Assembly: GCA_965207075.1 (NCBI GenBank) | Contig: CBDBLO010000002.1 | Coordinates: forward strand, 2,112,001-2,176,000 | Direction of reading: 5' to 3' | Origin: Nitrosopumilus sp. | Lineage (GTDB): Archaea > Thermoproteota > Nitrososphaeria > Nitrososphaerales > Nitrosopumilaceae | Length of the DNA stretch: 64,000 nt | In this document: positions 17,094-38,460 of the stretch, piece by piece | Numbering within the stretch: position 1 is the stretch's first letter | How the letters are laid out: each line of letters starts with the position of its first letter | Translations under genes and position numbers: made by a program | Notes under the pieces: generated by a model | Told to the model about the DNA's origin: nothing | The model's input: the letters and a program-made list of their open reading frames with translations, nothing else | Database searches by the model: none

Positions 17094-17167
17094 GGGTCTA
17101 TGGCGCAGCCAGGTAGCGCTCAGGACTCTTAATCCTGCTGTCGTGGGTTCGAATCCCTCTAGACCCG
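17094..17167 (+). tRNA. tRNA-Lys(CTT)
   Basis: GGGTCTA/TAGACCC acceptor, CAGGA-CTCTTAA-TCCTG anticodon arm, GTTCGAATC T-loop, upstream TTATAA box. Confidence 0.95.
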
Positions 17168-17337
17168 CTACTATACCGGTACTCTTTTGGGCTCCGGTAA
17201 GTGGAAAGAATGATCACAGGTAGGAAGGAAAGGCCCGAAAGGCGAAAACCGGGGGAGGGGTGTCACGGCGGCGCGCAGGGGCGCGGGACTCGCCCTTCCA
17301 CAGGGGCTTTTATGGGATCGGGGGTGTGCGTCCGACC

Positions 17338-18639
17338 ATGATTAAGATTACAAAAGAGGAGTTGAGGGACGGTGGGTCTGCCGCATCATGTACCGAGCCC
17401 CTCGACCTGTTCTGGCAGGGCATCAGGGCCGAGGAGACCCGCAAGACATACACGCGCACGCTCAGGCGCCTGCTGTGCGGCGCGCTGGAGGAGGTGCTGG
17501 AGGGCACGTTTGAGGAGCGCGCGGCGCAGCTTGTGCGGCTGGGAAAGGACGACCCGAACCGCACGCTGAACCTCGTGCTGCGCATATCAGGAAAGATTCG
17601 GGCGAGGAGCTCGCTGCCGCACGACCACCCGGACTACTTTAACCCGTCGGGCGTCCCCAACTACTTCAAGCCGCTCAAAAAGCTGTTCGACATGAACGGC
17701 GTTTCAATGCCGTGGAAGCGCATCTACTCGACGTTCCCCGAGTCCGACAACATCACGGAATCGCGGGGATGGACCCGGGGGGAGATACAGTCCATGCTCC
17801 GGTTTGCCAAGGGGTCGGCCGACAGGGCCGTCATACTGGTCGCCGCCAGTTCGGGCATAAGGGCCGGGGGGTTTGAGCTGCTGCGGTGGTCGGATCTCAG
17901 GCCGATATACCGCGCCGCTGCCGGCGGGGGCGGTAGCAGTGACGATGGGAACAGAAGCAGCAGCGACGTCCTCAGCTTTGAGCATGGTGGAGGCGACGGC
18001 ACTGCGGCGGAGCCGGTCTGCGCCATGCTTACCGTATACGCCCGCACAAACGCAAGCTATCCGGCGTTCGTCACGCCGGAGGCGTACGCGGCGGTAATGG
18101 ATTACCGGGGCGTGTGGGCCTCGGAGATCGGCAGGCCCCCGGAGCCCGGCGATCCCATCTTCAAGAGGGCCGGAAGCCTGCCCGCAAAGGCCACCACCCC
18201 GCTGATAAAGAGGAGGATCGAGAAGGTGGCCGGCGCGGCGGGCCTGCGCGCCTCCGGCAGAAAGTCCCGCAACCTGTTTGACGTGCCCATAATGAACGGC
18301 TTCCGCCGGTTCTGGAACAAGGCGTGCAAGGAGTCCTCCTCGAGGGAGTCGCCCCTGTCGTCCCTGATAAGAAAGGAGTACATGATGGGGCATGTCGGCC
18401 TGGTGAGCCTGGACCGCAACTACTTCAAGACGCACGTGATGGAGCTTGCAGAAGAGTACCTGCAGTCGGTGCCGCACCTGACCATAGACGACGCGGTCAG
18501 GCTGCGGCTGGCAAACGCGAGGCAGTCGGAGAGGATAGGGCTGCTGGAGGATGAAAAGGACAGGGAGATTGCAAAGCTGCGCCTCATGGTCGAGCAGCTT
18601 GCGGGCAGGATCGAGTCCTACTCCTCCCGGGGGATCTGA
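17338..18639 (+). CDS. Tyrosine recombinase/integrase
   Basis: SSGIR (catalytic R), NGFRR (HxxR variant), MMGH, DRNYF (catalytic Y), C-terminal coiled coil. Confidence 0.9.
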   Translation: MIKITKEELRDGGSAASCTEPLDLFWQGIRAEETRKTYTRTLRRLLCGALEEVLEGTFEERAAQLVRLGKDDPNRTLNLVLRISGKIRARSSLPHDHPDYFNPSGVPNYFKPLKKLFDMNGVSMPWKRIYSTFPESDNITESRGWTRGEIQSMLRFAKGSADRAVILVAASSGIRAGGFELLRWSDLRPIYRAAAGGGGSSDDGNRSSSDVLSFEHGGGDGTAAEPVCAMLTVYARTNASYPAFVTPEAYAAVMDYRGVWASEIGRPPEPGDPIFKRAGSLPAKATTPLIKRRIEKVAGAAGLRASGRKSRNLFDVPIMNGFRRFWNKACKESSSRESPLSSLIRKEYMMGHVGLVSLDRNYFKTHVMELAEEYLQSVPHLTIDDAVRLRLANARQSERIGLLEDEKDREIAKLRLMVEQLAGRIESYSSRGI

Positions 18640-18669
18640 GGTTTTTATGCGCCCCGCGGCACTGGCCGC

Positions 18670-18810
18670 ATGGACAGTAAGACATGCCCCGTATGTTTGC
18701 GCGCCTTGGACCTGCATTCTGACGCGGAGGTCATCGCCTGCGCACGCGCCTTGACATCCCGCACGCACGCGGAAAAACCGCGCCAGACCGCGCAGGAATT
18801 CACGCACTGA
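18670..18810 (+). CDS. 46-aa putative zinc-finger microprotein (not in the ORF track)
   Basis: Manual translation: MDSKTCPVCLRALDLHSDAEVIACARALTSRTHAEKPRQTAQEFTH, a CxxC-x6-H-x7-C pattern. Confidence 0.6.
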   Translation: MDSKTCPVCLRALDLHSDAEVIACARALTSRTHAEKPRQTAQEFTH

Positions 18811-18939
18811 TCGACGTAGGCGCCAAGTCCCGCCGGGTACTGCTTCCAATTCGTGATACGCGGCCTTGCGAGACGGCGATACCGTACTTGGATCGTACTA
18901 TGTGAAGTATGCGCGCACTTAAAAGGGGGCAGATCGCAA

Positions 18940-19032
18940 TGGAGACGGCGGCCGGGGGATTCGAACCCCCATGCGCTTGCGCGCGGCGATTCAGGAGATC
19001 GCTGCCAAACCGGGTATGGCGTAGCTGCCACC
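18940..19032 (-). tRNA. Atypical tRNA-like gene: CCT (Arg) anticodon with a long variable arm
   Basis: Reverse complement folds as D-arm GCCA/TGGC, anticodon arm GCGAT-CTCCTGA-ATCGC, V-arm GCGC-GCAA-GCGC, T-arm GGGGG-TTCGAAT-CCCCC, acceptor GGCAGCT/GGCCGCC, followed by GTCTCCA. Confidence 0.75.
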
Positions 19033-19148
19033 TATTCCCTACGGGCGTGCTGCGCTTTTATCCGTAACTTTCCAAGGTGAGGCTTCCAATTCGTGATACG
19101 CGGGCGGCGGTCTCGATCTTTTATATGGATCTGGGGTCTGGAGATCGC

Positions 19149-19610
19149 ATGGGCTACAAGAAGGGAGACTTGTGCCCCAAGTGCGAGAGCGGCATATTAG
19201 TCGTAGGTGGCGAGGTAACAGTATCCGGGGAGGACGGCGACGAGTGGTCTCGGAAGATCATCCTAAGGTGCCCCAACTGTGACCAGCGTCCTCTTTCCGT
19301 CGAGCTCGAAGGCCTTGTTAGGAACCGGGAACACGTGGCGCCAAAGGTGGACTTTGTCAGATTTGAGGAGATGTGCGAGCTCCTGCTCAAGTTCCTTAAA
19401 GAATCTGACGGATGGCTCCTGCTGGATGCCATAGTGTCACAGTGCTTTACGGGCAAAAAGGGCAAAGACGGGAGGCTGTTCCTGTCAGACCGGGAGGACT
19501 GGAACACGGTGAAAGGCATAGTGGTGTATTTCGAGCTTGACGGGCGGTTGGAATCCAGGCCGCACAACGGCAATCCGGAGCTGAGAGAGTACAAGTGGAA
19601 GATACCATGA
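19149..19610 (+). CDS. Hypothetical zinc-ribbon protein with possible C-terminal wHTH
   Basis: CPKC and CPNC pairs; TTTTATA box at ~19119. Confidence 0.7.
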   Translation: MGYKKGDLCPKCESGILVVGGEVTVSGEDGDEWSRKIILRCPNCDQRPLSVELEGLVRNREHVAPKVDFVRFEEMCELLLKFLKESDGWLLLDAIVSQCFTGKKGKDGRLFLSDREDWNTVKGIVVYFELDGRLESRPHNGNPELREYKWKIP

Positions 19611-19662
19611 ATCCGTGATACGCAGATCGCAGGCGGGGGAAAGGAGAGATCGCAAGACTTGA

Positions 19663-19971
19663 TCAACTCCAACCCAAAACCGCCATGATACTGGCTATGG
19701 ATCCCGCGACTGCCAGCAGGTAGATGATGTACTGGAGGAGCGGGCTGATTTTGCGTATGTCTTCGGAGAAGATGTCGATGTCCGGGTGTGTTTCGCTGTA
19801 CTTGGCCAGCGCTCGCCTGAAGGCCTTCTGGTTCCTTGTCCTCCGTTCCCACTTGTAGTGGTTGTGCCTCGGGGCTACCTGCACCTGTGCGATGGTCAGG
19901 CCTTCCACCTTCAACAGGCGTTCAAGCTCATCGCACATGGCTTGATCCAGGGCCTTGTCCTTCAGGGACAT
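19663..19971 (-). CDS. Hypothetical protein with C-terminal TM helix
   Basis: ORF from MSLKDKALD to a hydrophobic C-terminus. Confidence 0.55.
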   Translation of the reverse strand: MSLKDKALDQAMCDELERLLKVEGLTIAQVQVAPRHNHYKWERRTRNQKAFRRALAKYSETHPDIDIFSEDIRKISPLLQYIIYLLAVAGSIASIMAVLGWS

Positions 19972-20009
19972 GCGTAGACGCACGTTGGATGGTGAGCAGC
20001 GCCTTTTGC

Positions 20010-20252
20010 TTAATTTTTGATAGGAAACTCGACCGTCTGGACCTTGTTCCTGCACCTTTCGAAAATTTCCCTGGCGATCTTTTCCGACTGTTTTTCATCG
20101 TCAATGCTGATCTTTGCAGACAAGTCGAAGGAGGGCGAGTTTGGCAGATCCTTGAGGCTTACAAACCCCATCTTTTTCAAGGTCTCCTTGACGCTTGGAC
20201 ACGCCTGGCTCTCATTGCAAAGTATCCGAAACTCATATTCCATTTCCATCAC
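20010..20252 (-). CDS. Small hypothetical protein, possible ACT/ferredoxin-like fold
   Basis: 80 aa with an alternating beta/alpha pattern. Confidence 0.55.
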   Translation of the reverse strand: MMEMEYEFRILCNESQACPSVKETLKKMGFVSLKDLPNSPSFDLSAKISIDDEKQSEKIAREIFERCRNKVQTVEFPIKN

Positions 20253-20472
20253 TATTCCTATGATCCCGGGCTACTCCGGGATGAAGGGGTCATACGTGGT
20301 GCAGGGCGAGCACTGGCCCGGCGAGCACCAGCTTGAGGCCGAGGTGTACAGGCACGGCTATCTTGCAAAGTCCTATTATTCGGAACCGTTTACGCTGGAA
20401 TGAGCGTGGCTTCTAATACCTCTTCATTTTTCAAAGGTTTTTGCTTCTGTGAGAGGAAGGGGAGGTGATAAG

Positions 20473-20844
20473 ATGGAAGACGAAACTGCAACGGATGACT
20501 TTGTGAGCCATTTCAAAGATCTAATCAAGAACCTAGACCTACACAAAGGCAAAATCGTTTATCACGACGGAATGGTAGGCATTGGAATCAATGTTCGCGA
20601 CAGCCTTTCAAAAATAAGCAAGGATGACGGAGACCACATAGACGAATGCGTAGTCGAGATGAATGAAAAAATCAAAGATCTAGGTGCTTCAGCAAGACAG
20701 GTTTCGGGCAACTATAACGACATGCCCACCCGTCTCGAATGCGTGATAAGGGCTGGCCACATACGCGATCTGGCAGACACGATAATAGAGCGTGCTGGTG
20801 CCGTGCCAACGGAAGAATACGTGCCCAGCACCGGTACTCCCTAG
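20473..20844 (+). CDS. Hypothetical protein
   Basis: GGAGGTGA Shine-Dalgarno-like sequence before ATG 20473. Confidence 0.6.
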   Translation: MEDETATDDFVSHFKDLIKNLDLHKGKIVYHDGMVGIGINVRDSLSKISKDDGDHIDECVVEMNEKIKDLGASARQVSGNYNDMPTRLECVIRAGHIRDLADTIIERAGAVPTEEYVPSTGTP

Positions 20845-20993
20845 TTCCTACTCTGACTGCTACGACGCTCCATTTCGAGCTCACGTTCCCTGTTTCTTTT
20901 TTCCCTTTCTTCCCTGTTTGGGAACCCAAGGGCGTCAAACAGGTTGTCAATGGCTTCTTCTACGTCATAGCCGACACGAGGTTTTTGACTCAT
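20841..20993 (-). CDS. 50-aa charged microprotein (not in the ORF track)
   Basis: Manual translation: MSQKPRVGYDVEEAIDNLFDALGFPNREEREKRNRERELEMERRSSQSRN; TTTATAAA box upstream at ~21076-21083. Confidence 0.5.
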   Translation of the reverse strand: MSQKPRVGYDVEEAIDNLFDALGFPNREEREKRNRERELEMERRSSQSRN

Positions 20994-21094
20994 TGTTTCG
21001 CCCACCCCGTGCCTGCGTTTCCGAGAAGATCGCGCCGCGTATCACGAATTGGAAGCAGTGCCTCCCGCCGCGCTCTTTATAAAGTTCCAACATA

Positions 21095-22046
21095 GTTACC
21101 CGCAAACTTTCATAGAACTCTATGAAAGTTTGCGGGTAACCTCCGCGGCACCACATGCACATGGGCAGGAAGTCAGGCAGTGGGCGCCAAGTGCCTCGGG
21201 CTTGGCTGGCGCACGGATGGCGGGCCTGCCGCATGCCCGCCGTAGGCGGGACGGGCTGGCGGGATCCGGGGCGCAGCGCGTGTCAGGAGGCGGCTGCCGC
21301 CGCCGACGATGATCAAGCAGGAAGCGAGCGTTGCGATGCAGGTACGCCCCGTCGCCACCGCCATACCCGCAAACAATCATAGAGCTCTATGACAGTTTGC
21401 GGGTATCTGCCGCATGCCCGCGGGCGCCCGTGCAGGCCGCCGCAGGTGCGGAACCAGCCTCTCCCGTGACGGGCGTATCTGCTAGAAGGTGACAAAGAAA
21501 TCTGACATTCTGCACGTTTGCCACCGTCCGCCCCGGCCTGCCCGCAACCTGCCCCGTATGCTTGCGGCATCAGACGCTAGGTTCACTGTGGTACACTTTA
21601 ACAGCGGGAGGCAGGGCGAGCCAGCGGGACCCGGGGCGCAGCATGTGCTCGGAGGTGGCTGCTGCTGCTGCCGGCTATGGTCAAGTCGGAAACGGTGTTC
21701 CGACGCAGGTACGCTCTCCTCCCCTCCCTCCCTCCCTCCCTCCCCCCCCCCCCGACGCCGCCGACTGTTACCCGCAAACCGTCATAGAATTCTATGACAC
21801 TTTGCGGGTAACTGCCGCATGCCCGTAGCACCGCACGCACACGAGCAGGAAGTCAGGCAGTGGGCGCCAAGTGCTTCCGGCCCTGGCCGGCGTACGGACG
21901 GCGGGCCTGCCGCATGCCCGCGGGCGCCCATGCAGGCCGCCGCAGGTGCGGAACCAGCCTCTCCCGTGACGGGCGTATCTGCTAGAAGGTGACAAAGAAA
22001 TCTGACATTCTGCACGTTTGCCACCGTCCGCCCCGGCCTGCCCGCA
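21095..22046. repeat. Three 44-46 bp palindromes interleaved with duplicated 75-140 bp modules
   Basis: TACCCGCAAA-N3-4-TCATAGA-N2-TCTATGA-N3-4-TTTGCGGGTA at 21095-21140, 21363-21406 and 21767-21812; module 21407-21546 repeated at 21907-22046; module ~21165-21240 repeated at ~21845-21920. Confidence 0.92.
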
Positions 22047-22205
22047 TTCCCGCTACCGGGGCTCCATGCGGCAACCGGAAGGCGAAGCCCCACCCCTCCC
22101 ACGTCAGGGCAGTGTCACATGCGGCTCTCGGGCTCAAGGGTGTAGCAGATCTACGACCAGCTTTCAGGCGAGGAAAAGCGCGGGGTTCAGCTCACCGGGT
22201 TGCGG

Positions 22206-22511
22206 TCATTTGAGCCGGAGGCGCTCCAGCTTGCTCTTACCGGCAGCCGTACCCCGGCCGCCGGGCTTTTTGGACCTGTCCTTGGCCATCATCTCCGCTA
22301 CGGCCCTCGCGTACTTGTCGGGGCCTGCAGAGTCGGGCGTACTGTCACCCAAGACGCTCAGGGGGCTTATCACAATCTCCCCGTCCCTGACCCGGAACCT
22401 GACGCTCTGTCCTTTGTTGATCCCTGCCCTTTCTGCTATGATCCGTGGTATTGTCAGTATGAATGATCCCCGGTTTAGCTGCATTCTGCGCTCGATTATT
22501 TTCTCTTCCAT
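22206..22511 (-). CDS. AbrB/MazE/SpoVT-family DNA-binding protein
   Basis: GSFILTIPRIIAERAGINKGQSVRF swapped-hairpin signature. Confidence 0.8.
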   Translation of the reverse strand: MEEKIIERRMQLNRGSFILTIPRIIAERAGINKGQSVRFRVRDGEIVISPLSVLGDSTPDSAGPDKYARAVAEMMAKDRSKKPGGRGTAAGKSKLERLRLK

Positions 22512-22823
22512 GACCATTGATGCGCAATTCTGTTTCCTAATTCCGCCGTGGGCATCCGCCCCTGCGGCTTTGAGGCAGGCATGCGTTAATTTGTTCAATA
22601 AAATTTGACAAAACGGCCAAAGGGCGCTCATGCAGGCGTTGAAATGCTTATGGCGAAAGTCAGACACGATGTATCCCACATCTGCGTGCCCAGACAGACG
22701 CCAACGCCTGTTCGCGGCGTCGGCATTTAACCATGACTCGATCCCCCCTCCGGGCGCCTGCCGGGGCGGCGCGGCGCGGCCAGCCCGGGGGAATTCGGCG
22801 TACTGGAGGGGGCGGAGCCGCCC

Positions 22824-23939
22824 ATGAGCCGGACGCGGGGCGCCGCAGCGGCGGGAACGGACAACGAAAAGTACGTCAGGCGCGGCGCGGACCTGTTCAT
22901 AGAGTATGATCCAGGGTGGGAGGATGACGTGGGGCGCGCAAACGAGGGCAAGGTCGGCGCCCCGTACCGGTACGCGGAGACGCTCATCATGCTGGCCGCC
23001 GCCTTCAGGGGCGCGCTGGGGATCCGGTACAGACAGCTCGAGGGGATGGTCGGGAAGATGGTAGGCGGATCCAACACGCCCGCATACAGCCAGCTGTACA
23101 AGCGGATCAACAGGCTTGACGCGGACATCCGCCGGAACCCGGACGGGATGGTGACGGTGTCGGACAGGAAGGGGTCGCGGATGCTGGCGCTCGACGCAAG
23201 CGGGCTCAAGCAGCACAACAGGGGCGAGTGGATGAGGGCCAAGTGGAGGGTTAGGCGGGGCTTTGTAAAGATGCACGTGCTGGTCGACACGGAGACCATG
23301 AAGATACTCGCGCTGGAGGTCACGGACGATGCCGTGGGGGACTCGACCATGTTCGAGTCGCTGCTCGGACAGGTAGTGGACGCGGGCGGCGCGCGGCACA
23401 CGGAGCCGCCCGCCGCGCCACGTTCCGGCGGCGGCCCGAGATACGAAAACCTTCTCGCGTCCGGCATCCCCCCGCTCGCGTCATTCTTCCCGGGCGCCCC
23501 CCGGAACCGGGCCGCGCCCGACCTCCTGCTTGGCGACGCCGCGTACGGATCAAGGAAGAACGTGGCCGCGTGCGCGCGGGCAGGGGTGACCCCTGGCATT
23601 GCACACACCATCAACGTGACGGCGCGTGGCAGGGGATCCGGCGACGCGTGGGGCATATCCGTAAGGGACCAGATGGGCGGAAGCCCCGACGCGACGCGCC
23701 TGGACCTGATGGGCAGGGAGGAGAAGAGGGAGAACCAGGCGTACTGGAAGGCCCGCATAGGCTACGGCCACCGCTGGATCGCGGAGGCCGTGTTTTCGGT
23801 ATTCAAGCGCCTGTTCGGCGAGCACCTGATGGCCCTCAAGTGGGAGAACATCGTGCAGGAGATAAGGCTCAAGGTGATCCAGTACAACAAGTGGAGGGAT
23901 GAGTCGATAGCGCGCGAGGCGGGAGGCGGGACTTTCTGA
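22824..23939 (+). mobile_element. IS5-family DDE transposase
   Basis: NEKYVRRG, P.YSQLYKR, LALDASG, GEW, KMHVLVD, GDAAY, YGHRWIAEAVFS. Confidence 0.88.
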
Positions 23940-24042
23940 TGGTGTGACGACCATGTCGTCGTCCGATAGGAATCCAACAGGCACCCAGACGGCGAATTAG
24001 GAAACAGAATTTGATGCGCCATATCTACTTAAGGGACAAAAA

Positions 24043-24190
24043 CCGGTAAAGCGTGTAAAGCGTGTAAAGCGCGCGTCCGGCCCACCGGTAAAGCGTGTAA
24101 AGCGCGCGTCCGGCCCACCGGTAAAGCGTGTAAAGCGCGCGTCCGGCCCACCGGTAAAGCGTGTAAAGCGCGCGTCCGGCCCACCGGTAA
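24043..24190. repeat. 33-bp tandem repeat, ~4 copies
   Basis: Unit CCGGTAAAGCGTGTAAAGCGCGCGTCCGGCCCA with no spacers; the first unit has an extra GTAAAGCGT. Confidence 0.93.
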
Positions 24191-24761
24191 AACACGGAAA
24201 GCGCGCGTACGATTTGGTGACACGCATGGAACGCCCCCTTTCGCATTAGTACTACACCTCAACGACAACCTGCGCTCTCCCACGCATGTCACACCCGAAG
24301 GGTGTCAAGCCGGCGCCCCTCCCCGCGGAGGTTGGAGTCTCACCAAACAAGCGCGCGTCTCTGCCCCCACTGGCGTCTCCAGACACCAAACCCATTGGGC
24401 GCGCGGTCTCTTACCAGCTCAATTGGCGCGATGGCTCCCTTCCGACTGTCGGCTCCTGAACGTCTCGGTGTCCGTCGCGCTCTAGGACGGCCGGGGAGTT
24501 CATTTCCTGTTTGGCCTCTCGTTCTCTCCATCCCTTAACCAATCACGGGCACAACAAAGCTTCAGAGATATAGTCCGGTCTGGCGTGTCCGATTCGATGG
24601 CCACTCTCAAGATCTCATCCGGGGCCAGCCCGCGCACTCCAGAGGTCCAAACCGTACGGTTCGCCGAGTCATGATGGAATCACAAGACGTTGGTTTGGTT
24701 GTTATGTACCTAGAGTAACGACAACTCTAATTCGGAAAACATCAGAGCCTATGGTGGAACG

Positions 24762-24843
24762 TGGCGCTGAGTGGGGGGTTTGAACCACGAGTACGCGAAT
24801 ACGTCCTCCACAGGAGAGTGTCCCAGCCAAGCGAGATCCCAGC
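24762..24843 (-). pseudogene. Degenerate tRNA-like sequence
   Basis: Reverse complement: GCTGGG...CTCAGC acceptor plus GCCA end, GGTTCAAACC T-loop, CTGTGGA loop, GTAT-TCGC-GTAC extra arm; several stems are mismatched. Confidence 0.5.
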
Positions 24844-25388
24844 AGTGTTTTAACAGGATAGCTTCCCATAGTGGCGGTCACCCCTTAAAATCACCAGCAT
24901 ACTCGGGCATAGCATCCTTCTTCTCCTAGCAACAGCCCACCGCCTTGTGGTTACGCAGGGGCATCCTATATGAAAGACGCGAACACGTCGGTACGTTCCT
25001 CCCAAAGATACCTCTCCAGTGACAGGATGGCAAACAGGCAAGAAGCTTTCCACATACGTCGTCAGACAAACGATCACCGACTTACAGACAGCATCACTAG
25101 TACAGCTAGAAATGAAAACAGAGCCTACTGGCCTAATTTGGCGTCCGTTTTCCCGTGATCTTCAATTCTTTGACTCATTCTCCGGACAGTCCGGATATGA
25201 GCGAGCTGATTCTACAACAGCGTATTCCTGTATCTCGTCAGAGCGCAACAATGTCAATCTCTTAGTCGCTAGGATTGGGGCATCAGTATGATTCCGACAT
25301 CGTCAGCCTTGTGTATACAGTAACGGTCAACTGTTCGTCCTAGAAGCGCACCTTGTCACTCTGGGATGATCGGGGTAATACTGTCATA

Positions 25389-25931
25389 TCATTTTGTTTT
25401 TTCATACACGTCCATGAGCCTTCCTGCGTTCATCAAATAGCTCACGCTATACTTTGAGCAGCACAGCCTCGTTCTCTTAAAGTCTGAGCGCTGGCGTAAT
25501 CCCTCCATGTATTCTGGAGGTATCTTGTATGCGTCGGTGATTATAACGCCACCGATCTTTAGAAACTTGAGCGCATCCAGAAATATCTTCTTCGGGTTAC
25601 GATGAATGTTGTTGATGACATTGACACATATCACTACGTCTGTTTCTTCCACGTGATCGCTGACATCTGAAGCATCCTTGGGTATGAACTCGTCCAGATT
25701 TGACCCTGCTGCCTCGCTCGAATAGGGGTCAATCCCGACCGCATGCACCTCGACACCTTTTGAAGAGAGGCACTCCTTGCACCCTGTGAGGGCCGTTCCG
25801 TCCGAGCATCCGATGTCAACTATGACGAGTCTGTCGTTTGCATGCGCAAAATGTTGGTAGATGTAGTTTGGTATGCCCAGCTCGTCATACCGAGTCCTCC
25901 ATGTTGTCTTGAGTCTGAACAAGTCCATCAA
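25389..25931 (-). CDS. Class I SAM-dependent methyltransferase
   Basis: IVDIGCSDG motif I, GID, DVVIC, LKIGG; overlaps the hsdR stop. Confidence 0.8.
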   Translation of the reverse strand: MMDLFRLKTTWRTRYDELGIPNYIYQHFAHANDRLVIVDIGCSDGTALTGCKECLSSKGVEVHAVGIDPYSSEAAGSNLDEFIPKDASDVSDHVEETDVVICVNVINNIHRNPKKIFLDALKFLKIGGVIITDAYKIPPEYMEGLRQRSDFKRTRLCCSKYSVSYLMNAGRLMDVYEKTK

Positions 25932-28900
25932 CTCCCAGCCCAGTTCTTTGCTATGACTTCTGCTTGGCTCAGAACGGTATCAGTGGCCTTCTTGGCCTTG
26001 TCGGGCGGATATTCGTACCTCTTCAGGATCTTCTTGACTTCCAGTCGGATTGCAGCCTGAACGCTTGCCTTTTGCGTCCAGTCTATTGTGACGTTCCTTC
26101 TTATCATGTCAGTCAGCTCCTTTGCAATCGACGCGAGTACCGCATCTCCCATGATCCTTACCGCGCTGTCACTGACCCCAAGCGCGTCATAAAACGCAAG
26201 CTCGTCCTCATCCAAGTCTAGCGTTCTGCCCCTGCCTCTCTCTTCCCGGATCTGCCTTGCAATCTTGATAAGCTCGTCTATGACCTCGCTTGTGCTGATT
26301 CTCTTGTCATTGTATCTTCTGATGGTATCCTCCAGCAAGTCGCGGAAGGATCTCCCCTTGACTATGTTCCTCTTTGAGTATATCCTAATCTTCTCCTCAA
26401 GTATCCTCCTGAGCGCCTCGCGCGCAAGATTCTTCTCGGGAGATTTCCTGATGTTTGAGAGGAAGACTTCCGACAATATTGACACCTCCGTACCAGGACT
26501 TCCCGCGTTGCCGATTATGTCGATTATCTCATCGGACACGATGGCCTTTGAGATTATCTGCTTTATCCCAACATCAAACCTCTCGCGGTCGGCGCCGCTG
26601 TATCCGGTGGTCTTTGTGACTGCCGCCTTTATGGCCTCGAAGAACCCCATCTCCTCTTTGATTCTCATGGCCTCCTCCCTCGGAAGTGCTATGGAGAACG
26701 CGCCGCGCAACAGGGCAAACTCCTTCTGGAACCTCTCCTTTGTGCCCGGCTCCCTCAGTATGTGATCTACCGCGCGGGACATGAACGGCACTCGCTTTTC
26801 AGGCCTGAGGTTGAAAAATTCCATGTAGTCAAACCCGTGGAACATGCACTTGACGACATCGTATTTTTCAAGCATTGCAGACACTGCGTCATCCTGCACG
26901 TTGGTTTGCTTGCCGCGGCCGCCGCTCCTCGTGTAATTTGACATGGCATTCTTTATCTCCCTGCTCATGTCCATATAATCGACAATCAGGCCCCCCTCCT
27001 TGCCCGGGTATACCCTGTTCACCCTTGCTATTGCCTGCATCAGGGTGTGGCCGTCCATCCATTTGTCCAGATACATAGTGTGGAGCGAGGGGGCGTCAAA
27101 CCCGGTAAGGAACATATCCCGTACTATGATGATCTTGTGCGCGCCCTTGGGATCCTTGAACCTGTCGCCGATGGCCCTCCTTTTTTGTTTGCTTCGTATG
27201 TGCTCCTGCCACGGTTCTGGATCGGACGCAGAGCCGGTAAACACTACCTTGATCAACCCCTTGTCGTCGTCCTTGTGGTACCAGTCGCGGCGCTGCTCGA
27301 CGATCTCGTCGTGCAGCTCAACGCATATCCTTCTAGACATGCAGACAATCATTGCCTTGCCCTCCAAGACGGAGCTCCTCTCTTCGTAGTGTCTTATAAT
27401 GTCGCCGGCGATCTTCTTGATGCGGGCAGGTGCTCCTACCAACTTCTCCATGCGGGACCACTCTTTCATTATTTCCTCCCTTTCGTCAGTCTCGCTTCCT
27501 TCAGTCACCCTTGCAAAGTCTTCATCAATGCGCGGGCGCTCTGTGGATCTTATGTCAACGGGCACAAACTTGTTCTGATAGTAGATTCTGACTGTGGATC
27601 CGTCCTCCACTGCCTGTTGCACATCGTAGATGTCTACATAGTCGCCAAATACGGTGGGAGTGGAACGGTCTTTTTGCTCGATCGGCGTGCCGGTAAACCC
27701 GATGAAGGATGCGTTGGGCAGGGCGTCCCTCAGGTATTTGGCAAGACCGTATGCGACTTGCGGCGCGTCGTTTCTGTTGACTATCTTGGCCGCGAACCCG
27801 TAATGGCTTCGGTGCGCCTCGTCTGCAATAACCACTATGTTGTCTCTTTCTGACACGGCGTGATGCTGGTCGCGGTTCTCCGGTAGAAACTTTTGGATGG
27901 TAGTAAACACGATCCCACCAGATGCGACGCTTAGCAGATCTGATAGATCCCTTCGCGCCTCGGCCTGCACGGGCTTTTGCCGCAGTATGTCTTGGCATCT
28001 GCCGAACGTGCCGAACAGCTGGGCGTCAAGGTCGTTTCTATCTGTGAGCACTACTATGGTGGGGTTGTCCATACCGCGGATCAACTTTCCCGCATAAAAC
28101 ACCATGGTTAGTGACTTTCCGGATCCCTGTGTGTGCCAGACCACGCCTGCCTTTTTCGTGTCGCCCCGCGCACTGATCGTGGACTGCAAAGCTTTGTTGG
28201 CCGCCCAGTACTGGTGGTAGGCTGCCATCTTTTTTGTTGTTTTTTCACCCTTCTCAAACACGATAAAATTCCGTATGATGTCCAAGAGCCTACTCTTCTC
28301 AAACATTCCGCGTAGTAGAACCTCAGTCTGAGAAAGTCCTCCGCCAGGTCTTGCACCGTCAATGGTCTTCCACTCCATGAATCTCTCCATGCCAGATGAC
28401 ATGGTTCCGGCCCTTGCCTGCATGCCATCGCTTATTGTGAGAATCTCGACATACCTGAACAGATCCGGAATTTTTTTCATGTACGTCTGGAGCTGGTTGT
28501 ATGCAGACCAGATGTCCGCCTTTTCATCTGCCAGATTCTTCAGTTCGAAGACTACCAGCGGGATACCGTTTACAAACAGTATAACGTCGGGCCTGCGCTC
28601 GTCATCTCCCTTTATGGTGAACTGGTTGACTGCTAGAAAGTCGTTGCTACGGATTTTGTCGTCGTCAAACTCAAAGAGCCATGTCTTTTCGTACCGCTCA
28701 CCGGATTCCGTCTTGACTGGGACGTCCACCCCGTCAACCAGCATCTTGTGAAATGATTCGTTATCGGTAATCGGGTGCTGGGAAGAGCTCCGCAGTACCT
28801 GCCTTATCGCATCTTCTACTGCAGGCCCGGGAATACCCGGATTAATTCTCTGCAGTGCGCCTCTTAGTCTGTCCACCAGCACCACTGTCTTGTAATCCTC

Positions 28901-29032
28901 GCGCAGCGCGGAATGGCCACCGGGCAGATATTCTTCGTTTTTTCCGCGTATTATTTCATAACCAAGTTCTTGTAAGACAGACAGAACATATTCTTCCACA
29001 TCCGCTTCTGAAATTGGTTTTTTCATTGCCAT
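25928..29032 (-). CDS. hsdR: Type I restriction enzyme R subunit
   Basis: RPDVILFVNGIPLVVFELK, HTQGSGKS, DEAHR, FTGTP, LTGFDAP, QAIARVNR. Confidence 0.96.
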   Translation of the reverse strand: MAMKKPISEADVEEYVLSVLQELGYEIIRGKNEEYLPGGHSALREDYKTVVLVDRLRGALQRINPGIPGPAVEDAIRQVLRSSSQHPITDNESFHKMLVDGVDVPVKTESGERYEKTWLFEFDDDKIRSNDFLAVNQFTIKGDDERRPDVILFVNGIPLVVFELKNLADEKADIWSAYNQLQTYMKKIPDLFRYVEILTISDGMQARAGTMSSGMERFMEWKTIDGARPGGGLSQTEVLLRGMFEKSRLLDIIRNFIVFEKGEKTTKKMAAYHQYWAANKALQSTISARGDTKKAGVVWHTQGSGKSLTMVFYAGKLIRGMDNPTIVVLTDRNDLDAQLFGTFGRCQDILRQKPVQAEARRDLSDLLSVASGGIVFTTIQKFLPENRDQHHAVSERDNIVVIADEAHRSHYGFAAKIVNRNDAPQVAYGLAKYLRDALPNASFIGFTGTPIEQKDRSTPTVFGDYVDIYDVQQAVEDGSTVRIYYQNKFVPVDIRSTERPRIDEDFARVTEGSETDEREEIMKEWSRMEKLVGAPARIKKIAGDIIRHYEERSSVLEGKAMIVCMSRRICVELHDEIVEQRRDWYHKDDDKGLIKVVFTGSASDPEPWQEHIRSKQKRRAIGDRFKDPKGAHKIIIVRDMFLTGFDAPSLHTMYLDKWMDGHTLMQAIARVNRVYPGKEGGLIVDYMDMSREIKNAMSNYTRSGGRGKQTNVQDDAVSAMLEKYDVVKCMFHGFDYMEFFNLRPEKRVPFMSRAVDHILREPGTKERFQKEFALLRGAFSIALPREEAMRIKEEMGFFEAIKAAVTKTTGYSGADRERFDVGIKQIISKAIVSDEIIDIIGNAGSPGTEVSILSEVFLSNIRKSPEKNLAREALRRILEEKIRIYSKRNIVKGRSFRDLLEDTIRRYNDKRISTSEVIDELIKIARQIREERGRGRTLDLDEDELAFYDALGVSDSAVRIMGDAVLASIAKELTDMIRRNVTIDWTQKASVQAAIRLEVKKILKRYEYPPDKAKKATDTVLSQAEVIAKNWAGS

Positions 29033-30606
29033 GCCTCTGGTTGAATTCTAATTTTTCCTGACATCAGTTTCGATAACAAAAAATTTCGTTGTAACGTCAG
29101 CACATGTGACTCAAATGTGTTTCGTCGTATACGTTCGTCCCAAGTAGAGACATACGCTTCAAAGTGATTAACCAAGGTTCGAGGAGGTTCAACCATTGGC
29201 ATCATTTCGAGCTGGTTTTTAGTAATGGCCCCAAACACTGTTCCTATTTGGTCGTATTGTTTGAGATCCTGCTGCAAAGACCATGCCAGATAATAGGTAA
29301 AAGATCGTGAACCCGTTTTATGCCTAAGTGCTGCAACACCTCTGCCTATGCAGCACTTCTCCCAGGCCATGTTTATCGCCCCTACAGGGGCTCTAACGCT
29401 GACTAATGTATCGTCTGCATGAGCAATGCGAGTTGGTGCTGTGCAGTATTTTCTCTTTCTAGGATATCGCAGCCCAAAGTCCGTACTACCCTGAAAAAAT
29501 GGAAGGCCTTTGCATTCATCATTGTAAGTTTTACTTGGAGGCGATTGGCCCATGGTCAGATTGAGGCAATTTTTCACCACGTTTATTGTCCATACCTCAG
29601 GAATGTCACCCAGCTCCGAATCAGTCAATTGATCAGGGAATAAATCATAAAGATGACTAGGAAGGCCGGGCAAAGACTCTCCGGGTTGCCATCTCCCCTC
29701 CATCTTGGCACGGACAGGATCAAAGTCCACAAACCATGACTTGAACAATGCTCGCGCCATCACTTCAAGTGTTTCATTCATCTTGTGATTGAGATCTATT
29801 TTCGCATCTAATGTTCCTAGAATATGTGCAATGATTCGTTGTTTGTCCAAGGTGGGAATTGGCATGAGCCACTCTTTAAAAGATTTTGTTGTAATAGTTT
29901 GGAAGATAGTTCCATAAGTGAGGGATTCCATTTGTGATCGTGTACCTTTGAGCGCGTAGTAAAGATAGTCAGGAACTATACGTTCATTTGGAATAAGAGC
30001 ATAGCAAGTTTGATTGAAAGCCATTTCTTTGCCAAGTTGAGTTAATGCGCCAACAGTTCCACGTGAAGTAATAAGTATTGTATTCTTAGGCATGATCTTA
30101 GTAGAGCTTTTAGATACACCCATCTCAGTAATAGATTCTTGAGATTTGTACAAATACCTCGAGTTATTTTTAGCTATATCTTTTGCAGTTACCCATTGAA
30201 TATTTCCGTGCCAGTAGTCGGGCACACTACGACTTGGTGTGCCACCAATAATTGCGGTAGCGACTTCAGAAACAGGCATTTTGCTCCAATGTGTATTATT
30301 CGTTTCCACAGGAATTTTTTGCGCGTCTATGATTTTTTTAAATTTACTGTTGACAGCTTTAAGATCCACAACATCTACCGTGTAAGGAAGATCCGAATCA
30401 TCAAACTCAATACTTAGGTTTGTCATAGTATCGTGATCAATAGGTTGATCGCCCTCCACGGCAAGATCCAAATCAGAACCATCGTGTGTTGTCCATTTTG
30501 CCCTGCTTCCAAACACCCAAACACGGACATTGGATAGAAGATACTTGCGTAGTATGTTACATACTATCTCCAACTGACTTGGACTAATATCAACTGGACT
30601 AGTCAA
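29023..30606 (-). CDS. hsdS: Type I specificity subunit HsdS with an N-terminal fused minimal nucleotidyltransferase (MNT) domain
   Basis: First ~100 aa: VFGSRAKWTTHDGSDLDLAV...LPYTVDVVD; then TRD1 (GGTPSRS, SRGTVG), conserved spacer LFKSWFVDFDPV, TRD2 (GQSP, VRAPVG). Confidence 0.92.
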   Translation of the reverse strand: MTSPVDISPSQLEIVCNILRKYLLSNVRVWVFGSRAKWTTHDGSDLDLAVEGDQPIDHDTMTNLSIEFDDSDLPYTVDVVDLKAVNSKFKKIIDAQKIPVETNNTHWSKMPVSEVATAIIGGTPSRSVPDYWHGNIQWVTAKDIAKNNSRYLYKSQESITEMGVSKSSTKIMPKNTILITSRGTVGALTQLGKEMAFNQTCYALIPNERIVPDYLYYALKGTRSQMESLTYGTIFQTITTKSFKEWLMPIPTLDKQRIIAHILGTLDAKIDLNHKMNETLEVMARALFKSWFVDFDPVRAKMEGRWQPGESLPGLPSHLYDLFPDQLTDSELGDIPEVWTINVVKNCLNLTMGQSPPSKTYNDECKGLPFFQGSTDFGLRYPRKRKYCTAPTRIAHADDTLVSVRAPVGAINMAWEKCCIGRGVAALRHKTGSRSFTYYLAWSLQQDLKQYDQIGTVFGAITKNQLEMMPMVEPPRTLVNHFEAYVSTWDERIRRNTFESHVLTLQRNFLLSKLMSGKIRIQPEAWQ

Positions 30607-30615
30607 GTGATCTAT

Positions 30616-31197
30616 TCAACTCCTAGAAGTTTTATGCAAGTTTTTTGTAGATATATCAGCTTTGGAGCTTTTAGTTTTTTTAAGCTCAGCATTAAGATCG
30701 CGCAATCTGGATTCCAATTTGGTGATCTCGGATTCAATATCGTTCTTTGTTGGTCTCTTAGATATCGGAGATGGGACAGCGTGGCCATCCTGCAAACTAG
30801 ATAATACGTATTGCGCTTCGTGTAGAAATTCAGATGCAGCTTCAAAAACATATTGTGCTTTTTCTTCATCGTATGTGTGACTAGTAATTCCACGATTTTT
30901 TCGATACTGATCCCAAACAGAAACGTCTGATCGAATAAGATCCTTTTTGTATGCTTCACGAATAATGTCTTTGAAATTCATAGATGCAACTTCTGCAGGG
31001 TTAAACAATGCCATTCCCAAATGTCGCTTGATCATTTTAAGAGTTATTTCATACGTGAATTCAAAGGATTGTATAACGGCACTACGCATGTGTTTTTTGT
31101 GCTTTGGGCTTTTTTGAATTGTTTCATCATAATATGTATCGAGCGCGTCTGCAAGCTGAGCAATCGCTTTTTCCAGTGATGTAAGGTCAAGATTCAT
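30616..31197 (-). CDS. HEPN-domain protein (HI0074/nucleotidyltransferase substrate-binding family) with coiled-coil tail
   Basis: VIQSFEFTYE and RGITSHTYDE (Rx4HxY). Confidence 0.9.
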   Translation of the reverse strand: MNLDLTSLEKAIAQLADALDTYYDETIQKSPKHKKHMRSAVIQSFEFTYEITLKMIKRHLGMALFNPAEVASMNFKDIIREAYKKDLIRSDVSVWDQYRKNRGITSHTYDEEKAQYVFEAASEFLHEAQYVLSSLQDGHAVPSPISKRPTKNDIESEITKLESRLRDLNAELKKTKSSKADISTKNLHKTSRS

Positions 31198-31201
31198 GTA
31201 T

Positions 31202-32764
31202 TCACACCTTTTTCACATTAAATCCAAGGCTCTTTATGTTTTTGGTAATTGATGCATCCAGTTTCTTGGATTTCGATTGCAGCTCATTCCATTGCAATAC
31301 TAGCTGGCCCATTCTTTCTTCAAACGGTTCTTCGTCATCCAACTGCGAGCTTACACCTACGTAGCGTCCCGGAGTAAGAACATACCCATGCTTATGAATC
31401 TCATCCAACATGACACTCTTGCAAAATCCGACTACGTCCTTGTACCTGGATCTTTTATTGCGCCAAGAATGATATGTGTCGGCAATCTCTGCAATATCCT
31501 CGTTCGTCAGCTCCCTGTGCCGCCTATCCCTCATCGTACCCATGTTGCGGGCATCAATGAACAATACCTGCTTCTGACGGTTTCTGAACCGGTGGTTCTT
31601 TTTGTCTCTAGTTACAAACCACAGGCAGGCGGGAATCTGAGTGTTGTAGAACAGCTGGGAGGGCAGTGCGACCATGCAGTCCACCAGATCCTGCTCCACT
31701 ATATTTTTGCGTATTTCGCCCTCACCGCTCGTGTTAGAGGACATCGAGCCGTTGGACATTACGAATCCGGCCGTTCCGGTAGGTGATAAATGATGGATAA
31801 AGTGCTGAATCCATGCAAAGTTTGCGTTGCCAGCAGGTGGTATGCCATACACCCATCTGACATCATCCTGTAACAGGTGACCGTCCCAGTCACTGTCGTT
31901 GAACGGAGGATTGGCAAGTATGAAATCCGCCCTCAGATCCTTGTGCGCGTCGTTTACAAAGCTGCCCTGTCCATTCCACTTGATCATGTTGGATTCTATC
32001 CCGCGAATGGCTAGGTTCATCCTACACAGACGCCAAGTGGTGGAGTTGCTCTCCTGTCCATAAATTGAGATGTTGCCGATTCGGCCACCGTGTGCTTTGA
32101 TGAATTTTTCACTCTGCACGAACATGCCGCCCGAACCGCAGCAGGGGTCGAATATTCTGCCCTTGTATGGTTCCAAAACCTCTACCAGCAGTCTGACAAT
32201 ACTTCCCGGCGTATAGAATTGGCCACCCTTTTTGCCCTCTGCATCTGCAAACTGGCCCAAAAAATACTCATATACGCGCCCTAATACGTCCTTGCTCTTG
32301 CTCTCCCTGTCTCCCAGTCCGATGGTTCCTATCAAATCTATCAATTCCCCGAGCCTCTGCTTGTTGAGACTGGGACGGGCATAGTCCTTTTGCAGGACTC
32401 CACGCAATGACACATTCTCTCTTTCTATGGATGCCATCGCGTTGTCAATCATCTCTCCAACCTCCGGTTTCTTGGCATTGTCAGCCAGATATCTCCATCG
32501 TGCCCTTTTGGGTACCCAGAAGATCCTCCTAGAGGTGTACTCGTCACGGTCCTCGGGATCAGAGTCCTGCGCTTTTCCCAGTAATTCGTGTATTTCTACG
32601 AATGCATCAGATATGTACTTTAGAAAGATCAGCCCTAGCACAACATGCTTGTATTCTGCCGCGTCCATGTTGCTTCGGAGCTTGTCGGCAGCCTTCCACA
32701 TCTTCTCCTCAAAACCGAGATTTGCACCGTTGGGGGTTCTTTCTTTGGATTTTACTCGTGCCAT
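31202..32764 (-). CDS. hsdM: Type I R-M methyltransferase subunit (m6A)
   Basis: [29 protein letters not shown]. Confidence 0.96.
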
Positions 32765-33468
32765 CTCATGCTTCCCTTCATGCCAAAGTCCTATCATCAG
32801 CATATTAAGCATATGCGTACGGGTCGGCAAAGTCGCTTAGCTCGTCTACCATGCAAGTGGCTGACAGCCGCAAAAATTGCCGTAAGCTGCGTTGCTCTCT
32901 GCCAAGAAAGGCTGTTTCGAGTGTTGTCTGTGTGGATACGTTCTGTAGATTTGCCCTATTTGGTGGCCTCCACGCCTAGAATGCAGGGATGCAATGACCG
33001 CGCGCCTGGTAGTCTGTCAAGTCTAAGGCGGCACAGTATCTTCCCTGCGCACATTTTTTCACTCTCCTCTGGCCGTGCCCAGCTCATAAATTGGAAGCAG
33101 AACCATGGAGCAGGATCAAGCGTGCAATTGCATGTCTGTTATTCAAGGGCAGGTTAGAGCATATGAAGAATTCCATACAGTAGCTACTGGACAGGGATGA
33201 GGTGGCCATCGTAAGCTGCCTGACTACATACTTGCTACTATTGCGGTATAGACGGCCGCCGGAATGCGTGGTGCTCGGAGAGCGCAAATGCCGACGTGGC
33301 AAGCCATCTTGTCTTGATCTCCAGATGTGCCATTCCAAGTCGGTTGGCCCCTTCTCCAGCCGCGAATGTCGTGACATACAGCTCAGGAATTGGAACACAA
33401 AGGTGGATGTTGGACAATGGTAGCATTACTGCATAAAATGCTTTGAGCTTTTTTCAAATTACTATACG

Positions 33469-34389: not shown

Positions 34390-34705
34390 GTAGAAGTACA
34401 TTAACCACGGGTTTAAAACGTTCACATCAGTAGGCTGTGCGCCCTCGAGTCGATTGATATCTTGTACATAAAGGCCTGAGATCCAAGTCATTCTAGGAAT
34501 AAATTTTTTAACAACCTGTGTGAAGTACAAACTCAAGTCGAGTTTATGCCCAAGTTCATGTAACAACAACTCGGCCACTGTATCGTTACTTGGTACCGAG
34601 AGACGCGGCGGGGTGTGCAGTCGTCGTAGAAGTTCGCCTATCGTCTGCGTATTGCCGCGTCTCCTATAGTGTCAAGTATAGGGATCTCGTGAGTGGAGGG
34701 GAACC

Positions 34706-35038: not shown

Positions 35039-35218
35039 GTATGGCCTCCGTCAGTTCTTGGATCCTCCTGCGGTTCTCGCTCATGGACGGCTCGGCAATT
35101 CGTCGATCAATAAGCTTTTCTGTGATTGTCTATTATGAGGTAACATTTTCAATGAGCGTTACTCTAGGTGTTGTATACCATCAGGTCATTCCCAAGTCCA
35201 TGCCTAGTGATGTTTATT

Positions 35219-38454: not shown

Positions 38455-38460
38455 ATACTA

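Follow-up and report, generated by a model that had tools for sequence, protein, structure and literature searches.

A putative accessory class II transfer RNA gene with anticodon CCU on an integrative defence island of Nitrosopumilus

A candidate transfer RNA (tRNA) gene with the anticodon CCU lies on the minus strand of the 64,000-nucleotide (nt) stretch of DNA, hereafter the window, that was analysed from the archaeon Nitrosopumilus sp. (assembly GCA_965207075.1, contig CBDBLO010000002.1, positions 2,112,001 to 2,176,000). Judged from its sequence and its setting, the candidate is best explained as a real and structurally constrained accessory tRNA gene that belongs to the cargo of a 26-kb island. 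It is filed here as an archaeal class II tRNA with a non-cognate anticodon and a re-paired core, located on a defined integrative defence island. As to its role, we tentatively prefer an accessory tRNA that would be expressed, charged by seryl-tRNA synthetase (SerRS) and able to read AGG codons, a reading that we hold to be possible, if short of probable. The gene and its anticodon have the following window coordinates:

18946..19029, minus strand: putative accessory class II tRNA gene with anticodon CCU (ARAGORN structure, minimum-energy fold and segment table against host tRNA-Ser)
18993..18995, minus strand: anticodon CCU in the 7-nt loop CUCCUGA (ARAGORN structure)

ARAGORN, which the preliminary description of this DNA had named as a check, calls a tRNA-Arg(cct) of 87 nt at 18944-19030 on the minus strand. 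When the gene is numbered with an acceptor stem of 7 base pairs (bp), G1 corresponds to 19029 and the discriminator G73 to 18946. The D stem is GCCA/UGGC with the 9-nt loop UACCCGGUU, the anticodon stem GCGAU/AUCGC closes the loop CUCCUGA, the variable arm GCGC-GCAA-GCGC is a hairpin without a bulge, and the T arm reads GGGGG-UUCGAAU-CCCCC. All 18 base pairs of these four stems are Watson-Crick pairs. The perfect D, anticodon, GNRA-capped variable and T stems, the anticodon CCT, the A at position 8 and the discriminator G of the 7-bp reading had all been claimed beforehand, and all were recovered on the minus strand. The acceptor stem consists of G-C, G-C, C-G, A·C, G-C, C-G and U·G, with the A·C mismatch at 4-69 and the U·G pair at 7-66. 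The general features of a tRNA are present: the acceptor/T branch is 7/5, the anticodon loop has 7 nt and contains U33 and R37 (a purine), and there are G18G19 and a T loop of the type UUCRANY. The minimum-energy structure computed with ViennaRNA for the 85-nt candidate stretch is the cloverleaf.

A cloverleaf of this kind might also arise by chance in GC-rich non-coding DNA, in which case the ARAGORN call would be a false positive. The candidate is called by ARAGORN alone and not by Rfam, and its folding energy is unexceptional (z = -1.5; 12 of 200 shuffles are as stable). On a genome shuffled block-wise with its dinucleotides preserved, ARAGORN made 1 call per 6.56 Mb. At this rate about 0.3 false calls are expected per genome, and a chance call in a given 64-kb window is unlikely (about 0.01). 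The consensus T loop UUCGAAU, the G18G19 and the proper 7-nt anticodon loop also speak against chance, as do the architecture, which is exactly that of host tRNA-Ser, the location in a mobile element, and the A/T box at tRNA-promoter distance, for which the likelihood ratio is about 20. We consider a chance cloverleaf most improbable.

The body of the candidate, which the preliminary description had termed Ser/Leu-type, is of the serine type. The segment lengths, 7-2-17-1-5-7-5-15-5-7-5-7-1, are those of host tRNA-Ser(GCU) and tRNA-Ser(UGA), and the 15-nt variable region is built as 1+4+4+4+2 around a GNRA loop, matching the three host tRNA-Ser genes that were parsed. G73 is found in the candidate and in 4/4 host tRNA-Ser, whereas host tRNA-Leu carries A73 (4/4), and a U follows G18G19 in the candidate and in all four host tRNA-Ser. 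With the host tRNA-Ser genes at C2:584217-584301, 1453566-1453650 and 2005929-2006013 (C2 being a contig of the host genome) the candidate has G73, G1-C72, U20 and a T arm of the GGGGG/CCCCC type in common. It differs from them in the anticodon, which is CCU and not the NGA or GCU of serine, and in G2-C71, A8, U14, A15, U21, A26, C44 and U48, and the overall sequence is dissimilar outside the T arm and the variable arm.

The arginine tRNAs of the host are built differently. In all seven tRNA-Arg sequences the body is of class I, the variable loop has 5 nt and A20 is present, which agrees with the earlier statement that tRNA-Arg is normally short-armed, and the candidate has none of these features. 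It also lacks the unusual T arm GGGAUCGAAGCCC that is found in 5/7 host tRNA-Arg sequences. Of the C35 and U36 or G36 that characterise arginine anticodons, it does possess C35 and U36. According to the available text of PMC9976931, serine identity resides in the variable arm and G73, the anticodon not being a determinant for SerRS, and arginine identity resides mainly in A20 and C35, with U36 as a further determinant.

The preliminary description regarded the gene as chimeric, an origin that is not borne out by the comparison with resident tRNAs. The only likeness to a resident or related tRNA is a region of 28 nt comprising the variable arm and the T arm, which is 89-93% identical to tRNA-Ser genes, and no host tRNA matches over a longer stretch. 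A recent duplication of a host tRNA-Ser gene was rejected because of this restriction of the matches.

The candidate deviates from host tRNA-Ser throughout its tertiary core. The triple U8-A14-A21 of host tRNA-Ser is replaced by A8-U14-U21, so that the near-invariant U8, A14 and A21 are all three altered together. The 15-48 pair is A15-U48 instead of G15-C48, the 26-44 pair A26·C44 instead of G26·U44, and the 13-22 pair A13-U22 instead of U13·G22. All core tertiary pairs are thus altered on both sides and can still pair, and G18G19 and the T loop UUCGAAU are retained. Because the changes affect both partners and leave them pairable, we read the candidate as having evolved as a folded tRNA, which would not be expected of a decaying copy. 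The point is drawn from a single sequence and is therefore an argument and not a covariation test.

Two possible signals for transcription flank the gene:

19056..19061, minus strand: ATAAAA box, candidate archaeal TATA box, -32 to -27 from G1
18921..18924, minus strand: UUUU run 22 nt past the discriminator, possible terminator, read from the sequence

A TATA-like element upstream of the gene had already been noticed, and the ATAAAA box indeed lies at the distance typical of host tRNA promoters. A run of six A or T within -38 to -22 is found at 42 of 50 other host tRNA calls, compared with 777 of 20000 random positions (3.9%). The host tRNA-Ala(CGC) gene has a near-identical box, AATAAAAGCGG, at an equal distance upstream.

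The sequences that flank the gene allow three more pairs beyond the 7-bp stem, U·G, G·U and G-C, followed by U and by CCA at 18940-18942, and an acceptor stem of 10 bp with an encoded CCA had been suggested on this basis. The pairs can be drawn and the CCA is present as described; the longer stem itself is not supported, since its added pairs are weak and the CCA is placed 3 nt past G73, whereas host genes that encode CCA have it right after the discriminator. Moreover, the U(-1)·G73 pair was also drawn by ARAGORN in 5/16 ordinary tRNA-Ser genes of relatives. When folded with its flanks, the candidate shows pairing between leader and trailer (z -2.46; 3 of 200 shuffles are as good). The idea that the acceptor stem really has 8 or 10 bp and that the gene encodes its CCA was rejected on account of the weak pairs, the misplaced CCA and the frequency of U(-1)·G73 in ordinary tRNA-Ser, and the extra pairs and the CCA are judged to be incidental leader-trailer pairing.

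The decoding background into which the candidate would be introduced can be described from the host genome, which comprises 2.23 Mb in 2 contigs with 60% GC and in which several tRNA genes bear introns, a trait that marks the host as an archaeon. ARAGORN finds no other CCU tRNA in it. The Rfam family RF00005 matches C2:118563-118628 with 29.1 bits, and this match belongs to the host tRNA-Arg(CCU) gene at C2:118553-118648, which is of class I and whose D arm is split by an intron of about 18 nt. Since the host thus possesses a separate class I tRNA-Arg(CCU), the candidate is supernumerary. It was also considered whether the host has no tRNA-Arg(CCU) other than the candidate, which would then contain a non-canonical intron; this was rejected, as the real gene is the one on C2, the anticodon stem of the candidate closes directly and its variable arm is a hairpin free of bulges. 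AGG is the commonest arginine codon of the host, with 23.8 per 1000 codons and 35% of the arginine codons in 609 long open reading frames (ORFs), which confirms the heavy use that had been asserted. In the island genes it amounts to 21.6 per 1000 and 29% of the arginine codons.

In the reading that we prefer, the gene would be transcribed from its own A/T box, the transcript would be trimmed to an ordinary 7-bp acceptor stem with G73, and CCA would be added to it. The RNA would then be charged by SerRS, because it has the architecture of host tRNA-Ser (variable-arm geometry, G73 and U20) and lacks the A20 of host tRNA-Arg. Its CCU anticodon would read AGG in competition with the single host tRNA-Arg(CCU), and some substitution of serine for arginine would result. 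The benefit to the island might be a stress or abortive response, addiction, or nothing, all of these being candidates only. Because SerRS ignores the anticodon, mistranslation is most easily reached by way of serine tRNAs. Natural cases of this type are few and comprise those of the CUG clade yeasts, the nematode V-arm tRNAs and the bacterial allo-tRNAs. In a literature search that was not exhaustive, no paper was found on an archaeal or mobile-element-borne tRNA of the serine type that reads an arginine codon.

The abundance of AGG in host and island genes would equally suit a helper that is charged with arginine and adds AGG decoding capacity beside the one intron-bearing host gene. That gene is single and needs a non-canonical splice. 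The anticodon arm of the candidate, GCGAU...AUCGC, is similar to that of host tRNA-Arg(CCG), and C35 and U36 count as arginine determinants in the text available from PMC9976931. Such a helper would, however, have to be recognised without the A20 present in every host tRNA-Arg sequence and with a class II body, a D arm of the serine type and a T arm other than the one prevailing in host tRNA-Arg. To our knowledge, there is no natural class II tRNA-Arg. Charging with arginine is therefore regarded as quite unlikely.

The candidate is located 1.8 kb inside an island that is inserted at a tRNA-Lys gene. The features that define this island and its main cargo are:

17094..17168, plus strand: tRNA-Lys(CUU), the integration target (ARAGORN; RF00005, 64.4 bits)
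17155..17174, plus strand: left 20-nt attachment (att) repeat, CCCTCTAGACCCGCTACTAT (repeat comparison)
43390..43409, plus strand: right att repeat, with one mismatch (repeat comparison)
17175..43389, no strand assigned: inserted island of 26.2 kb, missing from the other copy of this locus, with which contig C2 begins
17260..18639, plus strand: putative integrase of 459 amino acids, assigned by position only, adjoining the att site
25928..32830, minus strand: type I restriction-modification operon with hsdR, an hsdS-MNT fusion, a HEPN-type NTase_sub_bind protein and hsdM (Pfam)
39938..42034, plus strand: OLD-like AAA_15 + TOPRIM nuclease (Pfam; NCBIfam matches weak)

The boundaries of the island are evident from the second copy of the locus. 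C2:1-8372 matches window 8787-17174 (95-99% identical) and C2:8352-10599 matches window 43389-45679. The start of C2 therefore joins the left flank straight to window 43389 onwards, which identifies 17175-43389 as an insertion at the 3′ end of tRNA-Lys. The att repeat has the 20-nt consensus CCCTCTAGACCCGCT[A/C]CTAT. This arrangement fits the pattern of integrated mobile genetic elements in thaumarchaea, with an insertion at a tRNA 3′ end, a short direct repeat and an empty site for comparison; of 68 such elements 39 reside in tRNA genes, with a median att length of 17 bp, as given in the accessible part of PMC6563490. The candidate is not an att-site remnant of a host tRNA, since it forms a complete cloverleaf 1.8 kb within the island and the real att repeat derives from the tRNA-Lys 3′ end. 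The GC content of the island drops to 35-50% across 25-43 kb. Apart from the listed genes, the cargo includes two transposases and one Schlafen/AlbA_2 protein.

As a separate observation, the empty site is part of a larger repeat: the start of C2 (G000:C2:1-33000, G000 being the host genome) contains about 47 kb of the window region (8787-17174 and 43389-64000) a second time, at 87-99% identity and without the island. This may be either a true segmental duplication or the result of two strains having been collapsed into one contig. The other contig, C1 (45.9 kb), contains blocks that are 93-99% identical to C2:36-87 kb.

Searches of Pfam, PHROGs, NCBIfam and PDB sequences gave no hit for the putative integrase, which in an element of this type would be expected to be a tyrosine recombinase. 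It has 8 matches in its own genome, some of them beside tRNA-Lys(UUU), Arg(UCU), Ser(GCU) and Leu(CAA), and a tRNA gene was found within the 1.5-kb flanks at 22/36 loci of its homologues. The family is present in 72 of the 121 genus genomes searched, with paralogues at G000:C2:1912425-1913747, 1127827-1129083 and 449710-450840, and may represent an unrecognised or very divergent recombinase family. At sister loci, where the integrase-like ORFs are 83-93% identical, the common DNA ends at about 18835, and no tRNA-like gene was found in their 1.5-kb flanks. It follows that the tRNA(CCU) gene opens the variable cargo of the island.

The setting of the gene in a defence island leads to another explanation, in which the RNA would be a tRNA mimic outside translation. 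A nuclease or modification enzyme directed at tRNA might be offered it as a decoy or a spare substrate, whether this enzyme is the HEPN-type protein or the OLD-like nuclease of the island itself or belongs to an invader, or the RNA might serve as a landing site for elements that target tRNA. The MNT and HEPN genes are embedded in the type I restriction-modification operon. The hsdS gene carries an N-terminal MNT nucleotidyltransferase domain, and the HEPN-type NTase_sub_bind gene lies between hsdS and hsdM (window 29023-31197); this toxin-antitoxin-like pair within a restriction-modification operon is, we presume, reminiscent of the E. coli prr locus. The swapped core (A8, U14, A15, U21) would remove the usual modification targets at positions 8 and 15, which can be counted in favour of a mimic. 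Further in favour are the adjacency of all 3 class II tRNA(CCU) genes in the family to restriction-modification genes (0.3-14 kb), the preference of the integrase family for tRNA genes, and the view, found in the part of PMC5389517 at hand, that many allo-tRNAs are perhaps non-translational. The adjacency is nevertheless weak evidence, because restriction-modification genes are common island cargo. A decoy for the nucleases of the island would presuppose that one of them acts on tRNA, and neither the window nor the DNA up to 10 kb from the two other class II genes yielded a second att repeat of the candidate 3′ end. The anticodon loop, moreover, is a normal 7-nt loop, U33-N34-36-R37, as in a decoding tRNA. 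On balance a mimic is judged to be unlikely.

The immediate surroundings of the gene contain a 22-nt repeat and a divergent ORF:

18842..18863, plus strand: 22-nt repeat GCTTCCAATTCGTGATACGCGG, copy located downstream of the candidate; the DNA common to the sister integrase loci stops just before it
19082..19103, plus strand: identical 22-nt repeat, with the putative promoters of the tRNA gene and of the orphan ORF diverging on either side of it
21035..21056, minus strand: third perfect copy of the 22-nt repeat, inverted (repeat comparison)
19149..19610, plus strand: divergent orphan ORF of 153 amino acids with CxxC pairs; TTTTATAT at 19120-19127, about 27 nt before the ATG

The tRNA(CCU) candidate is bracketed by the two perfect direct copies at 18842 and 19082. 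The motif GCTTCCAATTCGTGATACGCGG, with the core TTCCAATTCGTGATA, recurs, often as close pairs, in the same genome and in two relatives. Further sites were found at window 19610-19623, at G000:C2:1513960-1514032, 1517736-1517757 and 1952098-1952119, and in G104:C101 and G160:C1. It looks like an operator or a recombination site of a mobile-element family. The orphan ORF has no match among Pfam and PHROG families, and a search of 5.8 billion proteins at near lengths returned only the ORF itself. The non-coding DNA of the island also contains a pair of related 45-nt palindromes, both near-perfect (GTTACCCGCAAACTTTCATAGA and its complement), at window 21094-21140 and 21363-21406 and 267 nt apart.

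Genes of comparable build were looked for with a looser pattern, made up of a CCU loop, a long gap and a T arm, combined with ARAGORN in 151 genomes of the genus and 401 of the family, of which 99 are shared and about 453 distinct; the family set takes in the unpublished genomes G255 and G355, and the positive claims rest on neither. Two more intron-less 87-nt class II tRNA(CCU) genes with G73 were found in this way:

G161, contig C9, about 356124-356210: class II tRNA(CCU) gene (ARAGORN)
G242, contig C2, about 148333-148419: class II tRNA(CCU) gene (ARAGORN)

In either case an A/T box is located some 25-30 nt upstream, and position -1 is U as in the candidate. Both genomes retain a canonical tRNA-Arg(CCU) that is 91-94% identical to the host gene, and neither of the two class II genes has a close paralogue within its own genome. 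The G242 gene passes RF00005 with 54.5 bits; the G161 gene, which has a U-U mismatch in the T stem, fails. The neighbours of the G161 gene encode a MunI-type endonuclease, an MT-A70 methylase and an IS240-type transposase, and the G242 gene lies in a low-GC patch at 0.3 kb from an Eco57I-like methylase gene. In contrast to the candidate, the two genes keep the canonical U8, A14, G15 and A21, and their sequences cannot be aligned to it outside generic tRNA positions.

Long-armed CCU tRNAs were also found in environmental and viral DNA. A stricter pattern gave 89 stretches in metagenome_contigs, and 80 loci taken from among them contained 24 intron-less cct calls of ARAGORN with 85-88 nt. Three of the loci (L316, L334 and L302) have a long-arm tRNA(CCU) with G73, and in L316 the anticodon arm is nearly identical to that of the candidate and the gene adjoins a transposase-like ORF. 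In viral_contigs all 20 pattern matches were intron-less cct calls, 19 of them of one near-identical type with A73 and CCA (L360-L378). Because of A73 and the encoded CCA, these 19 copies are considered bacterial in type and not of the serine type. The phage-borne form has 85-87 nt, a 3-bp extra arm capped by GAAA, C1-G72, A73 and an encoded CCA and is nearly invariant; it occurs on the 19 viral contigs and on about 18 metagenome contigs (within L269-L341), several of which are labelled human gut. The long-arm genes of phages and metagenomes reside on mobile DNA as the candidate does, and none of them is a close homologue of it. Long-arm CCU tRNAs are thus scattered, recurrent cargo of mobile DNA.

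In genome_contigs a looser pattern, which was poorly chosen, gave no intron-less class II CCU gene in 80 loci among at least 119 stretches, a result that reveals little on distribution; the matches listed were look-alikes of bacterial tRNA-Ser(UGA) and intron-bearing archaeal tRNA-Arg(CCU). Part of the loci L125-L198 consists of many bacterial tRNA-Ser(UGA) calls with the loop context GGUCCUGAAAACC, in which C and not U precedes the anticodon, and a register artefact is conceivable.

Several observations weigh against a functional gene, and in particular against a serine tRNA acting at AGG. RF00005 gives no match to the candidate at the gathering threshold (29 bits); the candidate is missing among the 49 RF00005 matches with E ≤ 1 in the whole genome, and in two E-value scans it fell below the 15.4-bit match of a transfer-messenger RNA T arm (same Rfam clan), which alone passed the clan filter. 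Host tRNA-Ser genes score 52-59 bits. The failure can be attributed to the swapped core positions, A8-U14-U21, A15-U48, A26·C44 and A13-U22. Near-universal residues are indeed replaced by A8, U14 and U21, the acceptor stem contains both a mismatch and a U·G pair, and its second pair is G2-C71 as opposed to the C2-G71 of 4/4 host tRNA-Ser. When 275 nt were compared by BLAST with 150 further genomes from the genus, no close homologue came up, just tRNA-Ser T arms and the 22-nt repeat. A pattern search of viral_contigs and a candidate-specific pattern in metagenome_contigs gave no close homologue either, which makes a true covariation test impossible. By their sequences, the G161 and G242 genes are analogues and not demonstrable homologues. 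DNA contigs from three runs (X1, X3 and X4) are identical over the gene, so that population variation is nil; a contig of run X6 spans 19002-19152. The absence of the island from the second copy of the locus implies that the tRNA(CCU) gene is dispensable. Finally, AGG makes up 2.4% of the host codons, and an efficiently charged Ser-tRNA(CCU) should thus impose a cost, which favours weak expression or charging, or a different role. It is because of this probable cost that the rival explanations persist.

A number of these points would be accounted for by a decaying or inert tRNA relic that was acquired elsewhere and can still fold, being no longer expressed or charged. Such a relic might well score below 15.4 bits with RF00005, show the loss of U8, A14 and A21 and the A·C mismatch, and lack homologues in the genus genomes, viral_contigs and metagenome_contigs searched. 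It would also be at home in orphan DNA next to an ORF without a relative, and the G161 analogue, with its RF00005 failure and mismatched T stem, would be a similar case. A relic would not, however, be expected to preserve Watson-Crick pairing in all 18 pairs outside the acceptor stem, its core changes would be random and not correlated as they are here, and a promoter-like box would hardly be kept at the host-typical distance. We regard a relic as somewhat unlikely.

At the other extreme, the candidate could be a purpose-built missense tRNA with a serine-accepting body that reads AGG, the commonest arginine codon of the host, the re-paired core of which evades tRNA-recognising enzymes of the host or of an invader and the mass Arg-to-Ser errors of which, in host or viral proteins, serve as an abortive-infection or addiction weapon. 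It would perhaps be switched on via the flanking 22-nt repeats, and the G161 and G242 genes would be further examples. This version is thought very unlikely.

If the accessory tRNA is expressed and serylated as we tentatively propose, a horizontally moving island would change the way in which its host reads 2.4% of the codons, and the fidelity of the genetic code would be linked to the biology of defence islands. The RNA would also be a natural re-cored tRNA scaffold with a swapped 8-14-21 triple that could be useful for tRNA engineering. If it is inert, it would be a clean case of a tRNA fossil shaped by compensatory change.

Two further tRNA-like loci were noted in the host genome. At G000:C2:1186525-1186747 the genes of His(GUG), Thr(CGU) and Cys(GCA) tRNAs are arranged head to tail, 2-3 nt apart. 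They duplicate isoacceptors present elsewhere, the first gene lacks the usual A/T box at about -30, and the trio may be another mobile tRNA array. At G000:C2:712737-713009 four overlapping ARAGORN calls of "tRNA-???(cggc)" follow each other with a spacing of 60 nt, which suggests a tandem repeat with tRNA-like hairpins.

Among known RNAs with a long variable arm, tRNA-Sec, the selenocysteine tRNA, was considered. A 13-bp 8/5 branch, the arrangement of bacterial tRNA-Sec, can be drawn in the candidate if U(-1)·G73 is counted, and the branch of archaeal tRNA-Sec is 9/4 in the text seen of PMC7609411. The candidate is ruled out as a tRNA-Sec by this branch, by its anticodon, CCU and not UCA, and by its D stem of 4 bp with a 9-nt loop, where tRNA-Sec has 6-7 bp and a 4-nt loop. 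The closest parallel is provided by the allo-tRNAs. As reported in the portion of PMC5389517 available, these have a 12-bp acceptor branch of the 8/4 or 9/3 type, and bacterial allo-tRNAs with anticodons for AGA/AGG insert serine in E. coli, their genes being neighbours of toxin-antitoxin and transposon genes. Mukai et al. (2017, Nucleic Acids Res 45:2776) suggested in the same text that translation makes no use of many allo-tRNAs and that these are instead tied to toxin-antitoxin systems or transposable elements. The AGA/AGG anticodons belong to the (9/3) type, and the candidate likewise combines a long variable arm and an identity of the serine type with a non-serine anticodon, has toxin-antitoxin and transposon genes in its vicinity, and is open to doubt as to a use in translation. 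The preliminary description had called it allo-tRNA-like, a term that fails by definition, since the five perfect pairs of the T stem make the branch 7/5, or 8/5 if U(-1)·G73 is included, and not 8/4 or 9/3. Allo-tRNAs are furthermore bacterial, whereas the host of the candidate is an archaeon, and the same portion of PMC5389517 describes no swapped 8-14-21 core for them. In its way of working, the candidate would thus be most like an allo-tRNA, without the 8/4 or 9/3 branch that defines this group.

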